Source: Escherichia coli O157:H7
GTDB lineage: Bacteria > Pseudomonadota > Gammaproteobacteria > Enterobacterales > Enterobacteriaceae
Strand: one strand, 5' to 3'
Length of the DNA: 64,000 nt
Assembly (NCBI RefSeq): GCF_013167455.1
Contig: NZ_CP038328.1
The stretch's first letter is position 1; the number at the start of each line of letters is the position of its first letter. The position numbers and the translations under genes were made by a program. The notes under the pieces are model-generated. The model saw only the letters and a list, made by a program, of their open reading frames with translations, had not been told where the DNA came from and ran no database searches. Positions 1-53,856 of the stretch are shown one piece after another.

Positions 1-126
1 CATAATCTGGTATTCCGAAGGAATGCGATCGTCTTCCACCAGATCTCCGGTATAAATACTTTCTCTTATCCACTCCACCACTTGTTGATAGAGCGGTATT
101 TGTGACGACTTACTTAATGATTTCAT
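1..126 (-). CDS. GntR-family HTH transcriptional regulator, N-terminal 42 codons only (gene runs off the window start)
   Basis: Reverse complement of 1..126 begins with ATG (124..126) and translates MKSLSKSSQIPLYQQVVEWIRESIYTGDLVEDDRIPSEYQIM, a typical GntR-type winged-helix N-terminus. Absent from the ORF track because no stop lies inside the window. Confidence 0.4.
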   Translation of the reverse strand, partial: MKSLSKSSQIPLYQQVVEWIRESIYTGDLVEDDRIPSEYQIM

Positions 127-324
127 GGCGCGCACCTGAACATTTACAGTTGTCTATGGACAATCATGGACAACTTCAAGCGTATAGTAGGTGAACGGGA
201 GAAAAAGAGGATCGAAGCGTCTCACATTTTGAGGGACCAAATCGTGATCAAAAAAATGTGACGTGAGTCGATATTTGTCAGAAGTTTACTGCGCCGTAAG
301 GAAATAACGGCGCGTTGGTAGGTG

Positions 325-49433: not shown

Positions 49434-51179
49434 ATGATAAAACCGACGTTTTTACGCCGGGTGGCCATTGCTGCTCTGTTCACAGGAAGTTGTTTTAGTA
49501 CGGTAGCCGCGCCACCTGCGCCGTCTCCTGTTTCTTACGGCGTGGAGGAAGATGTCTTTCATCCGGTACGCGCGAAACAGGGGATGGTGGCATCTGTAGA
49601 TGCTACTGCCACTCAGGTGGGGGTGGATATCCTCAAGGAGGGCGGGAATGCCGTTGATGCCGCCGTGGCTGTGGGCTACGCGCTGGCGGTAACGCATCCG
49701 CAGGCAGGGAATCTGGGCGGTGGTGGTTTTATGCTGATCCGCTCGAAAAATGGCAATACCACCGCTATCGATTTCCGCGAAATGGCACCCGCCAAAGCGA
49801 CCCGCGATATGTTCCTTGATGACCAGGGCAACCCGGACAGCAAAAAATCACTCACTTCGCATCTGGCTTCCGGCACGCCCGGTACGGTCGCTGGTTTCTC
49901 GCTGGCGTTGGATAAATACGGCACAATGCCGTTGAACAAAGTGGTGCAGCCAGCGTTTAAACTGGCACGCGATGGTTTTATCGTTAACGACGAGCTGGCT
50001 GACGATCTCAAAACCTACGGGAGCGAAGTGCTGCCGAATCACGAAAACAGCAAGGCTATCTTCTGGAAAGAGGGCGAGCCGCTGAAAAAGGGCGACAAGC
50101 TGGTGCAGGCGAACCTGGCAAAGAGCCTGGAGATGATTGCCGAAAACGGCCCGGACGAATTCTACAAAGGCACGATAGCGGAACAGATTGCCCAGGAGAT
50201 GCAGAAAAACGGTGGCCTGATCACTAAAGAAGATTTAGCGGCGTATAAAGCGGTCGAACGCACACCGATAAGCGGCGATTATCGCGGGTATCAGGTTTAC
50301 TCCATGCCACCGCCATCCTCCGGCGGGATCCATATCGTACAAATCCTCAATATTCTGGAAAACTTCGATATGAAGAAATACGGTTTTGGCAGCGCCGACG
50401 CGATGCAGATCATGGCAGAAGCGGAGAAATATGCCTACGCTGACCGCTCGGAATATCTTGGCGACCCGGATTTTGTGAAAGTCCCGTGGCAGGCGCTGAC
50501 CAATAAAGCCTATGCCAAATCTATTGCCGAGCAAATCGATATCAATAAAGCGAAACCGTCCAGCGAGATTCGCCCCGGCAAGCTTGCGCCTTATGAGAGT
50601 AATCAAACTACCCATTATTCGGTGGTGGATAAAGACGGTAACGCGGTGGCGGTGACCTATACGCTGAACACCACCTTCGGTACGGGTATTGTCGCGGGCG
50701 AGAGCGGTATTTTGCTCAATAACCAAATGGATGATTTCTCTGCCAAACCGGGCGTACCGAACGTTTACGGGCTGGTGGGCGGTGATGCCAACGCCGTCGG
50801 GCCGAACAAACGCCCGCTGTCATCGATGTCACCAACCATTGTGGTGAAAGACGGTAAAACCTGGCTGGTCACCGGTAGCCCTGGCGGGAGCCTGATCATC
50901 ACTACAGTGCTTCAAATGGTGGTGAATAGCATCGATTATGGCATGAACGTCGCCGAAGCGACCAATGCGCCGCGTTTCCACCATCAGTGGTTGCCGGACG
51001 AGCTGCGTGTCGAAAAAGGGTTTAGCCCGGATACGCTCAAGCTGCTGGAAGCAAAAGGTCAGAAAGTGGCGCTGAAAGAGGCGATGGGCAGTACACAAAG
51101 CATTATGGTTGGGCCGGACGGTGAGTTGTACGGCGCATCCGACCCGCGCTCGGTGGATGATTTAACGGCGGGGTACTAA
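49434..51179 (+). CDS. ggt: Gamma-glutamyltranspeptidase Ggt
   Basis: Start at MIKPTFLRRVAIAALF gives 580 aa with signal peptide. Confidence 0.93.
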   Translation: MIKPTFLRRVAIAALFTGSCFSTVAAPPAPSPVSYGVEEDVFHPVRAKQGMVASVDATATQVGVDILKEGGNAVDAAVAVGYALAVTHPQAGNLGGGGFMLIRSKNGNTTAIDFREMAPAKATRDMFLDDQGNPDSKKSLTSHLASGTPGTVAGFSLALDKYGTMPLNKVVQPAFKLARDGFIVNDELADDLKTYGSEVLPNHENSKAIFWKEGEPLKKGDKLVQANLAKSLEMIAENGPDEFYKGTIAEQIAQEMQKNGGLITKEDLAAYKAVERTPISGDYRGYQVYSMPPPSSGGIHIVQILNILENFDMKKYGFGSADAMQIMAEAEKYAYADRSEYLGDPDFVKVPWQALTNKAYAKSIAEQIDINKAKPSSEIRPGKLAPYESNQTTHYSVVDKDGNAVAVTYTLNTTFGTGIVAGESGILLNNQMDDFSAKPGVPNVYGLVGGDANAVGPNKRPLSSMSPTIVVKDGKTWLVTGSPGGSLIITTVLQMVVNSIDYGMNVAEATNAPRFHHQWLPDELRVEKGFSPDTLKLLEAKGQKVALKEAMGSTQSIMVGPDGELYGASDPRSVDDLTAGY

Positions 51180-51187
51180 GGTTAGCG

Positions 51188-51218
51188 GCCCTCTTCGTGG
51201 GAAGAGGGCTGTTTTCTT
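51188..51218 (+). terminator. ggt intrinsic terminator
   Basis: Perfect 9-bp stem GCCCTCTTC/GAAGAGGGC with a GTGG loop, followed by TGTTTTCTT. Confidence 0.8.
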
Positions 51219-51547
51219 GAACAAGATAAATTAGTGTCTGGATTGCTTTTACTATTGCTCCGTAATATATAATCATAATTATCCTGAATGCTTTTAAGGG
51301 GCTTAGGTTATGCTTTCTTTTCAAGAGTATGCAGAATAGTCTTTCATTTACCGTGAAAATAGGACGTGCGATAATTACTTCCTGATATTCAGGAAAGGAA
51401 TTAACTATGCTATTAAATAAACTGTAGTTATAGTTCATTTTAGAGTGTAATTTATTGATTTAAATATCACGCTTTGTGTTGTTTATGTGCATAATGGCAT
51501 TCATCATGACTTTGATCGATTTTGTAAAGTGTTTTTAAGGGGGAATA

Positions 51548-51964
51548 ATGAAAGCAAAATACGTGATTCTCTCTGTACTTAATAAACAAGAACTCTTCTA
51601 TTTAAAATCAAGATACAAAGAAATGAAGAAACTTGCTAATAAGCATGAAGTCTCTCTCGTAGAACAAAATTTCATTGATGCTATTATTTCAATGGTGGGT
51701 TATTGCTCTTTGGGGTTTGGGTTGGTAAGTATAGTTAATGGGATATTGCTTGTATTCTCATTTTTTCAGGATAATATGTTGAAAAGTTTTTTTCTGTCTT
51801 CAATCGTTAGTATTGCCATGTTCGCTATTCTTATCATACACAGAAAACTGGATACTAAATTCTCTTACCAATTATGCCTCAAAATGTTTTATCTTAAAAT
51901 TAAGTTATTCTGTTATTGTATTCCTGCACCAGTTGTAGTTCCTGATATATTCATTAATAATTGA
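51548..51964 (+). CDS. Hypothetical small membrane protein in the low-GC islet
   Basis: 138-aa ORF with an AGGGGG ribosome-binding site 5 nt upstream; two predicted TM helices; very AT-rich codon usage. Confidence 0.4.
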   Translation: MKAKYVILSVLNKQELFYLKSRYKEMKKLANKHEVSLVEQNFIDAIISMVGYCSLGFGLVSIVNGILLVFSFFQDNMLKSFFLSSIVSIAMFAILIIHRKLDTKFSYQLCLKMFYLKIKLFCYCIPAPVVVPDIFINN

Positions 51965-52824
51965 TGTGGCATATGATTATTGAGGCCATGTTTTATCCTC
52001 AAATTTGTATTTTCATCATAAAATGTAACCTTGAATTTTTTTACAGTAGAACTAATTTGTATGATTTTTAAAGGGGTAGGTTTTAATGAGAATTTATTTT
52101 TAAAATCAACTGATGTGTAATGAAATAATCGTCCTGTACCAGGTCTATTTCCTAATGAAGGACGAATCAATCTATTATACTTAGGTACGATTTTCATGCC
52201 TGAATATCCACCATATGCAGTAATCGAAAAGTCCACGATGCTGTATGCATAATCAGCAGAATTAATATCACCTCCCATTTTTTTTGCTATTACTCTGTAG
52301 AGTTCACGTATTGGACCTGAATCATACTCGTTAAAAAATAAAGGTGATAAGCTTTCATAAAAATTATTCGCCCCATGAGCAACTAATGTGACGCCTATAC
52401 CTTTTATTCGGTTTGAATGCACTACCTTACCAAATTTCAACGCGCCAACCCCGCCTACGACCTGTCCTACAGATGCAACAATATCGAAACTTAAGTTCAC
52501 ATATTTTATCAAACCATGTTCTTCGAAAATATCAGTAGTGATATATTTATCATAATTTCCTTGTCTGAAAAGTTGATATTCTTTTCTTGCTGTTTCTGAC
52601 TCCATTTTTAATTCATTGATAAGTCGTGCTTTTTCATTGATGTCATATGAAGAATTGAATCTGTGAGTAATATCATTAATAGTATTTTCTATTTCTTGCA
52701 GATACTCGAATCTAACTAATGGGGACTCAATAAAAAATGTTGAAGCAAGTGTTGCGGTTTTGCGTAAAGAAAGGGCATATTTGTTAAGATCATATCGTAA
52801 ATGACTTATAGCTGCTGTACCCAT
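51913..52824 (-). CDS. Hypothetical protein in the low-GC islet (occupies the position of the K-12 yhhZ/yrhA variable segment)
   Basis: 303-aa ORF; AT-rich; Gly-rich segments (VVGGVGALKFGKV, TAYGGYSGMK); no recognisable family from the sequence alone. Confidence 0.5.
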   Translation of the reverse strand: MGTAAISHLRYDLNKYALSLRKTATLASTFFIESPLVRFEYLQEIENTINDITHRFNSSYDINEKARLINELKMESETARKEYQLFRQGNYDKYITTDIFEEHGLIKYVNLSFDIVASVGQVVGGVGALKFGKVVHSNRIKGIGVTLVAHGANNFYESLSPLFFNEYDSGPIRELYRVIAKKMGGDINSADYAYSIVDFSITAYGGYSGMKIVPKYNRLIRPSLGNRPGTGRLFHYTSVDFKNKFSLKPTPLKIIQISSTVKKFKVTFYDENTNLRIKHGLNNHMPHQLLMNISGTTTGAGIQ

Positions 52825-53034
52825 TAAGTAGACTCTCTATCCATAAACAAACAGTAATAACTATTGCTTGCGAAAATATGTTCTCTTTAATAAGAAATAT
52901 TAACGAGTAATGATTCAAAGGTCTCTTGATGTTACAAATTGTTTCAAAATGATGGTGGTAATATAAGGAAAAACTCAAATTAGATGAACAAAACTAATTA
53001 TTCACATTGGTAACAGGCAATTTGAGAATATTCT

Positions 53035-53523
53035 TTACTTCACCCGCGCCATAAAATACGCATCAACATATTCACCATTACGTAATGCGTACTTCTTGCC
53101 AGTCCCTTCAATCTCAAAGCCGAATTTTTTATAGACCTTAATTGCTGGCGCGTTATCGACGAACACCGTTAGCTCAATACGATCTACCCGCAACCAGTTG
53201 TCGCACATTTCAATCATCTCTCGCATCAGGGCGCTGGCGACGCCGCGATTCTTCCAGCGGGCGTCGACACAGATACCAAAATCGGCAACATGACTGCGGC
53301 GTGGGCGCTGTTGCACGTCAATGGTGAGATGGCCCACGACGTCTCCATCAATACAGGCGACGAGTTGCTTGATGCCGGGACGATCGGCGAGTCGCTCCTG
53401 CCACATATGATCGGAAGGATGAGGCACCTGTAGTGTGTTGTAATACACCTCCGGCTGGGCGTGAATCTGCCTGATGGCCTCGTAATCCCGTGTTTCAGCA
53501 TGGCGTATCACTATCTCACTCAT
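53035..53523 (-). CDS. yhhY: GNAT N-acetyltransferase YhhY
   Basis: Start at MSEIVIRHAETRDYEAIRQ gives 162 aa. Confidence 0.88.
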   Translation of the reverse strand: MSEIVIRHAETRDYEAIRQIHAQPEVYYNTLQVPHPSDHMWQERLADRPGIKQLVACIDGDVVGHLTIDVQQRPRRSHVADFGICVDARWKNRGVASALMREMIEMCDNWLRVDRIELTVFVDNAPAIKVYKKFGFEIEGTGKKYALRNGEYVDAYFMARVK

Positions 53524-53644: not shown

Positions 53645-53734
53645 GCGATCAGGAAGACCCTCGCGGAGAACCTGAAAGCACGACATTGCTCACATTGCTT
53701 CCAGTATTACTTAGCCAGCCGGGTGCTGGCTTTT
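53645..53734 (+). ncRNA. ryhB: RyhB small RNA (Fur-repressed, Hfq-dependent iron-sparing sRNA)
   Basis: 90-nt sequence GCGATCAGGAAGACCCTCGCGGAGAACCTGAAAGCACGACATTGCTCACATTGCTTCCAGTATTACTTAGCCAGCCGGGTGCTGGCTTTT matches RyhB, including the terminal hairpin AGCCAGC/GCTGGCT plus U-run; lies between yhhY and yhhX. Confidence 0.9.
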
Positions 53735-53856
53735 TTTTTGATCTTTCGTTCTCAATTTATCCTCGGGAAGTGCTTGTGTTCGTTATGCGCACTCCAGTAG
53801 GAACCACGTCCGCTTTGCGCTAAGGTGTAAATAACCACCTTAAAAAGGACGAAATC

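Follow-up and report, generated by a model that had tools for sequence, protein, structure and literature searches.

Proteins with the DUF4225 domain are widespread among polymorphic toxins, and the closest described relative of the system reported here is one of them, a protein of Vibrio parahaemolyticus that is encoded directly downstream of hcp in an auxiliary module and is delivered as an antibacterial effector by T6SS1, a type VI secretion system (T6SS; Jana et al. 2022, PMC9765294). The Vibrio effector is toxic only if it is targeted to the periplasm, its effect is lysis, and it is neutralised by Imm4225^18764, an unannotated protein of 89 amino acids (aa) with three transmembrane (TM) segments that is encoded immediately downstream (NZ_LHBG01000025.1, positions 296..27; PMC9765294). 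A 2025 review gives the activity of DUF4225 as 'cell lysis' only (PMC12724144). Here we analyse a window of 64,000 nucleotides from Escherichia coli O157:H7 (contig NZ_CP038328.1), in which a short AT-rich islet between ggt and yhhY carries a DUF4225 gene of 303 codons and, convergent with it, an open reading frame (ORF) for a 138-aa protein with two TM segments. The islet is most probably a horizontally acquired DUF4225 T6SS effector/immunity cassette, now orphaned and partly decayed, in which the small membrane protein would be the antidote.

The islet is 1.8 kb long and stands out by its composition. Its GC content is 0.312, against 0.529 for the whole window, and falls from about 0.55 to 0.28–0.35 across about 51200–53050; GC at third codon positions is 0.30 in the 138-aa ORF and 0.22 in the 303-aa ORF, compared with 0.58–0.63 in ggt, yhhY and yhhX. 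The original prediction, made from the sequence of this window, had described just such a sharp drop with AT-rich codon usage and had placed it at 51220–53034. When the window is compared with K-12, ST131, strain 38 and Z0117EC0056, shared sequence stops on the ggt side at 51215 (51179 in ST131) and restarts on the yhhY side at 53030–53035, close to the limits first proposed, and we set the boundaries of the islet on the basis of these breakpoints (Table 1). The 2 kb around the islet are 100% identical in Sakai, EDL933 and many further O157 genomes. Neither direct nor inverted repeats of any significance occur at the islet ends, and a search of the islet against Rfam, which included no dedicated tRNA scan, gave no RNA family.

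The 303-aa product belongs to the DUF4225 family. It matches PF13988 almost from end to end of the model (E 2.3e-36, positions 2–162 of 165), and RefSeq names it 'DUF4225 domain-containing protein' (ECs_4291, WP_001302024.1). PF13988 is matched by all 97 aligned relatives as well, and DUF4225 is all that Pfam reports, with no colicin-like domain. A search for an N-terminal Hcp domain (PF05638) on the toxin gave no match, and the protein is not an Hcp-ET of the kind represented by K-12 YhhZ.

The status of the convergent gene is less evident from the databases. The NCBI Prokaryotic Genome Annotation Pipeline (PGAP) omits the 138-aa ORF in O157 genomes, and the tag ECs_4292 is missing from the current Sakai record. 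The present O157 RefSeq annotation thereby implies that the DUF4225 gene alone is real and its neighbour a chance frame in AT-rich DNA, a reading to which the lack of any match in Pfam, NCBIfam, PADLOC or PHROGs also lends itself. Conservation data already contradict it. A phmmer search of 1.8 billion representative proteins returned three distant homologues (40, 36 and 31% identity; E 6.6e-15, 6e-14 and 7e-6), each of which lies tail-to-tail with a DUF4225 gene, and the homologues keep the length (130–144 aa), the hydropathy pattern with its TM segments and the position of the O157 protein. A Shine-Dalgarno-like motif is retained too, as AGGGGG in O157 and in forms such as AGGAG, AGGAGG, GGAG and GAGG upstream of all the homologues. 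For the copies in Phytobacter and their orthologue, the ratio of nonsynonymous to synonymous substitution rates (dN/dS) is 0.26–0.53, well below 1, while the antisense frame is not conserved. The ORF is intact in all carriers examined but one, which has an insertion sequence (IS) in it. PGAP itself annotates the product in non-O157 carriers, as hypothetical protein WP_000645159.1, wherever the neighbouring DUF4225 gene is flagged frameshifted (pseudogene) and only there. On this pattern of conservation the 138-aa ORF is a real gene, and its origin as a chance frame is very improbable.

The product is predicted to be a small inner-membrane protein. Hydropathy analysis gives strongly hydrophobic segments at residues ~45–72 and 78–100, and the AlphaFold2 model is all-helical, with a mean predicted local distance difference test score (pLDDT) of 81 and helices at 4–32, 42–72, 77–103 and 107–122; the model has no match in the PDB. 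A basic N-terminal helical region (residues 1–41, with nine Lys/Arg and four acidic residues) is followed by two TM helices joined by a very short loop and then by a basic amphipathic helix in a basic C-terminal tail, such that both termini are predicted by the positive-inside rule to be cytoplasmic. The two-TM topology and the strong AGGGGG site are thus as they had been read at first. A search for a second, decayed copy between ggt and the 138-aa gene, by tblastn with eight family members, matched the intact ORF only.

The genomic setting of the relatives carries the functional interpretation. A scan with toxin-subfamily queries across one genome per bacterial species yielded Phytobacter ursingii and Edaphovirga cremea, and the O157-type clade now comprises six loci: E. 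coli, L007, L008, L009, P. ursingii (L012) and E. cremea (L013). A two-TM gene lies tail-to-tail with the DUF4225 orthologue (47–59% identity) in all six. In four of the five loci outside E. coli (L007, L008, Phytobacter and Edaphovirga) the toxin gene follows hcp immediately; the fifth, L009, ends inside the DUF4225 gene and leaves the upstream region out of view. In the related modules the hcp stop codon abuts the toxin start (TAAATG), which suggests a translational coupling that has been lost in O157. The order in P. ursingii ATCC 27989T is yhhX, yhhY, hcp (159 aa), DUF4225 (278 aa), three convergent two-TM genes and ggt, so the cassette occupies the same chromosomal site as in O157; its Hcp is 53% identical to ECs_0216, an Hcp of the O157 T6SS cluster. 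E. cremea has a resolvase gene, hcp, DUF4225 (279 aa) and one convergent two-TM gene (132 aa), and L007 has a yhhY-like gene, hcp, DUF4225 and two convergent two-TM genes. The three Phytobacter paralogues (144, 141 and 141 aa) stand in tandem between DUF4225 and ggt (L012 6842–8444), and their N-termini are 90% identical, compared with only 54% for the TM regions. Tandem arrays are typical of immunity genes, and this one looks like an immunity-gene array with diversified specificity.

A second DUF4225 clade, with about 24% identity to the O157 toxin, is found in Pantoea, Erwinia, Salmonella, Enterobacter and Yersinia. In all eight loci examined (L010, L011 and L019–L024) a convergent gene of 108–114 codons overlaps the 3' end of the toxin gene by 4–23 bp (23 bp in four Pantoea-type loci and 4 bp in Yersinia, against 52 bp in O157), and the six partner sequences compared, one per distinct locus type, share a layout in which two TM segments come after an N-terminal helical region. 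Homology between this ~110-aa family and the 138-aa family was considered and rejected, with an hhalign probability of 2.6% and an alignment confined to a 17-residue N-terminal motif. It is because two toxin clades each carry their own convergent small membrane partner that we argue for a functional pair, and we infer that the 138-aa protein is the cognate inner-membrane immunity protein of the DUF4225 toxin. Homologues exist for both ORFs of the islet, and no housekeeping family includes either of them; the toxin/immunity-type cassette first put forward as a reasonable hypothesis gains support from the DUF4225 domain and from its conserved tail-to-tail partner.

Several other candidates were set aside in the course of this comparison. 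Two ORFs that follow the toxin gene on its own strand were considered as alternative immunity genes, 51467–51589 (40 aa) and 51103–51438 (111 aa), and neither has a counterpart at the related loci. The latter, an ATG-initiated frame on the minus strand that extends from the islet across the ggt terminator and enters ggt at its 3' end, has no family matches and is probably spurious. Locus L005 was disregarded because its assembly is full of errors, with ggt and numerous other genes broken into pieces. The PLSDB gene table lacks an entry for the DUF4225 gene of the Erwinia pyrifoliae plasmids.

Across E. coli the ggt-yhhY interval is variable, and the DUF4225 cassette is one of at least four forms. 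Of 5426 complete genomes, 342 carry it, each once and always between ggt and yhhY, and all 342 copies are at least 99% identical. The other forms are an empty one with ~60 bp between the genes (ST131), one with yrhB only, and one, found in K-12 and others, with yhhZ (annotated tssD, 'Hcp1 family T6SS effector'), yrhA, yrhD and yrhB. The order in K-12 is yhhY, yhhZ, yrhA::IS1E, yrhD, yrhB, ggt, in agreement with the variable segment that the original prediction had described there, and the islet is indeed a strain-specific replacement cassette. The Hcp of the Phytobacter module and the N-terminal Hcp domain of YhhZ share 38% identity, on which basis the interval can be regarded as a hot spot, both in Escherichia and in Phytobacter, where Hcp-linked toxin cassettes are found. 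The stretch 51239–51325, at the ggt-proximal end of the islet, aligns at 73% identity with the spacer between yrhB and yhhY in E. coli strain 38 (L018 5852–5939); scaffold sequence at the site may be partly common to different cassette types.

The O157 copy differs from its closest relatives at the 3' end of the toxin gene. A run of four T residues (A on the coding strand) in O157 is a run of five in TUM18780, 2013C-4465, O55:H7 CB9615 and ABW_A19. The five-T allele encodes a 282-aa protein ending ...KVTFYDEKYKFEDKTWPQ, which aligns with the homologue ends ...LDEDYKFETQQLP and ...IDEEYRYGQP and whose stop codon lies 12 nt from that of the two-TM gene (in L003 and L004 the toxin stop codon is at 2248–2250 and the small gene ends at 2235). 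The four-T allele replaces the final 11 residues by 35 unrelated ones and brings about the overlap of the two ORFs. Convergent ORFs overlapping by about 50 bp had been described at the outset, and this stands for O157 at 52 bp; the overlap is, however, secondary and not ancestral because it is created by the 1-bp deletion in the O157 allele, and the 43 other genomes have the 12-nt gap instead. Those numbers come from a 61-nt probe across the run, which is matched perfectly in 299 genomes (four T) and with a mismatch or gap in 43, including O55:H7 CB9615; the five of these 43 that were read have five T residues, and most of the sampled alignments show a single extra base. PGAP flags the 282-aa allele as 'frameshifted' in L003, L004 and L025 (TUM18780, 2013C-4465 and O55:H7 CB9615). 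From the alignments we regard this flag as an artefact of the choice of reference, with the 282-aa form ancestral and the 303-aa O157 allele the one that is truly frameshifted. The change falls after KxKVxFxD, the last broadly conserved block of the toxin, and for that reason activity may survive it.

A number of observations weigh against a T6SS effector/immunity cassette, and they are gathered here together with the two explanations that draw on them most. The Pantoea-type loci have no hcp and often lie beside a resolvase gene on plasmids, so not every DUF4225 pair need be linked to a T6SS. No hcp, vgrG or PAAR gene adjoins the O157 copy. No remnant of hcp was detected in the 210-bp spacer between yhhY and the toxin gene, where the best tblastn hit with Hcp has E 0.66 and local DNA alignments with hcp are equalled by 35–360 of 500 shuffles; a resemblance of the last ~20 nt of the spacer to the 3' end of hcp was dropped for want of statistical support. 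The pair might then be self-contained, an addiction module that stabilises plasmids or islands or else an exclusion module, for which the linkage to hcp is secondary and in which the two-TM protein could be a membrane-active partner rather than an antidote. Such a reading suits the larger Pantoea-type clade, where the pair adjoins resolvase, Tn3-family, RelB/ParE and ParA/ParG genes, and the recurrent 3' overlaps would permit antisense or transcriptional interference as in type I toxin-antitoxin systems. Against it, no PADLOC defence model or NCBIfam toxin-antitoxin model is matched, with nothing below E 0.004 or near a curated cut-off; hcp is linked in four of the five other loci of the clade, with stop and start codons abutting (L009 being cut within the gene); in K-12 this site is taken by a fusion of Hcp to a toxin; and the DUF4225 protein that has been studied is a T6SS-delivered toxin that acts only from the periplasm (PMC9765294). 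We consider a pair of this kind improbable for O157, while leaving open a T6SS-independent lifestyle for some DUF4225 members.

Several structural and comparative results also count against the cassette reading. AlphaFold2 models the N-terminal 100 residues of the toxin as three long helices, with a mean pLDDT for the whole protein of 60.8; residues 104–170, within the toxin domain, are modelled at low confidence (pLDDT about 30). A Foldseek search of this model against the PDB gave nothing below E 0.29, and a PDB profile search with the toxin nothing below E 1.2. The 138-aa protein has no detectable similarity to described immunity families in the libraries searched, a comparison that did not include the Vibrio Imm4225 sequence, and the defence-system, phage and curated-family libraries held nothing meaningful for either islet ORF. 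ECs4291 and ECs4292 receive no mention in the literature searched, and neither the O157 DUF4225 copy nor its partner family was found there. The locus is likewise absent from a 2020 in-silico survey of T6SS effectors in enterohaemorrhagic E. coli (EHEC; PMC7216683) and from a 2026 study of T6SS degeneration (PMC12981562), and the E. coli protein of the islet is not listed in those supplementary tables of Jana et al. that were searched. The functional interpretation of the pair is drawn from sequence. Finally, ABW_A19 keeps an intact 282-aa toxin gene beside a truncated two-TM gene, a loss that the strain could bear only if the toxin goes undelivered or the truncated protein still functions. 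In that genome (L026 1–1500) the IS4-like element ISVsa5 has taken the place of DNA on the ggt side together with the first ~30 codons of the two-TM gene, and a truncated protein could nevertheless be made from an ATG that is in frame at the end of the IS.

A further explanation concerns the present state of the locus, namely that in O157 the cassette is a silent relic, with both genes unexpressed or non-functional and with no role in attack or immunity today. The missing hcp and the frameshifted toxin tail both favour it; a promoter and terminator scan returned counts equal to chance expectation, and an islet of 31% GC is a likely H-NS target. The state of the secretion system points the same way. 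The Sakai T6SS cluster at aspV (ECs_0213–0238) contains two hcp genes and one pseudogene, and the O157 T6SS is reported to be degenerate relative to O55:H7, with a 28-bp insertion in tssM, a nonsense mutation in vipB, fragmented effectors and undetectable secretion of Hcp1 (Sun et al. 2026, PMC12981562). The frameshift, specific to the O157 allele, fits this reported degeneration. ECs_0219 (L014 12971–14382), in the structural part of the cluster, is annotated as a pseudogene, which is consistent with the published account. The 138-aa ORF, on the other hand, has a strong Shine-Dalgarno site and is intact in every carrier examined but one, the toxin is altered only beyond its last broadly conserved block, and the copies diverge too little for a test of decay. 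A relic devoid of function seems unlikely to us and would in any case concern present activity only, which makes it compatible with the identity of the cassette proposed here. The O157 cassette appears, from its sequence features, to be partly decayed, and since hcp is absent, the toxin tail is replaced and the T6SS is reported degenerate, its present role is more probably protection from DUF4225-armed competitors, or none, rather than attack.

Taking the islet as a DUF4225 effector/immunity cassette, a mechanism can be proposed. If the Hcp-module effector of Vibrio is a guide, the toxin would presumably leave the cell by way of the Hcp tube, reach the periplasm of a neighbouring cell and kill it through lysis. 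A Gly-rich hydrophobic segment of the toxin would then insert into the inner membrane as a hairpin. The 138-aa protein, transcribed convergently from what may be its own promoter, would expose only a loop of ~4–8 residues to the periplasm and, with almost nothing accessible there, would have to act within the membrane. The Gly-rich segment, a hydrophobic stretch conserved as a feature of the family, is moderately hydrophobic in O157 and corresponds to two TM-like segments (116–141 and 137–157) in the Pantoea-type relatives. Pairwise identity within the toxin is lowest at residues 111–140 (0.34–0.40), and in the small protein it is the TM helices that vary most (0.54, against 0.90 at the N-terminus), the outcome expected of an interface that co-diversifies inside the membrane. 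We favour membrane insertion because of the Gly-rich stretch, the unexposed immunity candidate, the location of the variable regions and the colicin-like gene layout. The evidence for insertion is hydropathy and analogy, which weakens it, and so does the lysis phenotype of DUF4225, which is unlike that of the membrane disruptor Tme1 (Jana et al., PMC9765294). The poorly modelled toxin core, the failure to find a PDB relative by fold or sequence and the lack of a colicin-like Pfam domain in all 97 members speak against insertion as well. It is accordingly only a tentative and somewhat unlikely generalisation that DUF4225 toxins are of a membrane-inserting, pore-forming type, neutralised in the inner membrane by convergent two-TM immunity proteins. 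Specificity would then reside in the Gly-rich hairpin of the toxin and the TM helices of the immunity protein, and expression of the pair may also be coupled through the conserved 3'-overlapping convergent layout. Were this reading to hold, it would explain how a widespread toxin domain, to date listed with no known target, acts.

The features of the islet are collected in Table 1. Two further elements lie outside it. A GC-rich hairpin followed by a T-run (GCCCTCTTC-GTGG-GAAGAGGGC-TGTTTTCTT; 51183–51213, plus strand) directly follows the ggt stop codon; it resembles a ggt terminator, is also present in K-12 and is absent from the output of the terminator scan. Between yhhY and yhhX, the place that it also has in K-12, is the small RNA RyhB (53674–53738, plus strand; Rfam RF00057, 83 bits, E 1.7e-15).

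Table 1. Features of the AT-rich islet between ggt and yhhY (positions in the 64,000-nucleotide window).
Feature	Position	Strand	Basis
AT-rich islet, probably horizontally acquired, filling the variable ggt-yhhY interval	51216..53033		composition, strain comparison
303-aa DUF4225-family protein, candidate T6SS antibacterial effector, O157 allele	51913..52824	-	Pfam PF13988, annotation, orthologues
DUF4225 domain proper, residues 71–246	52087..52614	-	Pfam match
Gly-rich hydrophobic toxin segment, residues ~108–150, proposed membrane-inserting hairpin	52375..52503	-	hydropathy, variability
T4 run (A4 on coding strand), site of the 1-bp deletion in the O157 allele	52010..52013		alignment, translations
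Ancestral DUF4225 stop codon position, out of frame in O157, 12 nt from the two-TM stop	51977..51979	-	sequence
138-aa inner-membrane protein, candidate cognate immunity protein	51548..51964	+	homologues, linkage, hydropathy
Shine-Dalgarno AGGGGG, 4 nt before the ATG of the two-TM gene	51538..51543	+	read from sequence
AT-rich spacer, 210 bp, yhhY stop to DUF4225 start; position of hcp in related modules	52825..53034		sequence

Systems of this kind are already known. What is new is a convergently encoded family of candidate immunity proteins, the frameshift in the O157 allele and two annotation errors: a probable immunity gene has been dropped from O157 RefSeq, and the intact ancestral toxin allele is flagged as frameshifted with the O157 allele taken as reference. 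The locus adds a putative effector/immunity pair to the T6SS repertoire of O157:H7 and O55:H7, and its toxin frameshift is a further example of the degenerative trend in O157. Both the 138-aa family and the analogous ~110-aa family are always convergent with DUF4225, which offers an easy way to locate immunity genes for DUF4225 across Enterobacterales, and the data suggest that immunity to this toxin domain is exerted within the membrane. These points should be useful to T6SS and EHEC specialists, although they do not amount to a new kind of biology.

Among known systems, YhhZ-YrhA of K-12 and many other strains shares with the O157 cassette the ggt-yhhY interval, the orientation to yhhY and a relationship to Hcp. 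There is no sequence similarity between the two cassettes, and YhhZ differs in that it joins Hcp and toxin in one protein, the toxin part being annotated as an endonuclease (a cytoplasmic target), with yrhA co-directional. Pore-forming colicins such as A, E1 and Ia attack from the periplasmic side, where a hydrophobic helical hairpin inserts into the inner membrane, and immunity to them is conferred by a small integral inner-membrane protein that acts in the membrane and whose gene lies downstream on the opposite strand with its own promoter. The O157 pair is like them in architecture and gene layout only, the toxin having a similar hydrophobic segment. None of the 97 DUF4225 members matches a colicin pore-forming domain in Pfam, and no significant Foldseek or PDB match to one was obtained with a model that is of low confidence in that region; furthermore, colicins use receptor and Tol or Ton import, whereas delivery of the DUF4225 toxin would be by a T6SS. 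Tse4 of Pseudomonas aeruginosa (Tse4/Tsi4) is a pore-forming membrane toxin carried as cargo in the Hcp lumen (bioRxiv 10.64898/2026.06.15.732508). It has no detectable homology to the DUF4225 protein, which at 282–303 aa we judge to be large for lumen cargo of this type.

The closest counterpart is the DUF4225^18764/Imm4225^18764 Hcp1b module of Vibrio CFSAN018764. It has hcp directly upstream of the toxin gene, as do the orthologues of the O157 gene but not the O157 copy itself. The partners are set apart by description only, as 89 aa with three TM segments and encoded immediately downstream in Vibrio, and as 138 aa with two TM segments and convergent in O157. The O157 toxin alone has a C-terminal frameshift, and the T6SS of its host is a cluster of the E. 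coli T6SS-2 type at aspV that is reported to be degenerate. Of the hallmarks of an Hcp auxiliary module, an adjacent Hcp, VgrG or PAAR gene is found at the orthologous loci and not in O157, while a neighbouring gene for a small TM protein is present at six of six loci of the clade and a T6SS is present in the genome (Sakai). In both the Vibrio module and the O157 cassette, PF13988 is the sole recognisable domain of the toxin and the adjacent small multi-TM gene was missed by annotation pipelines.

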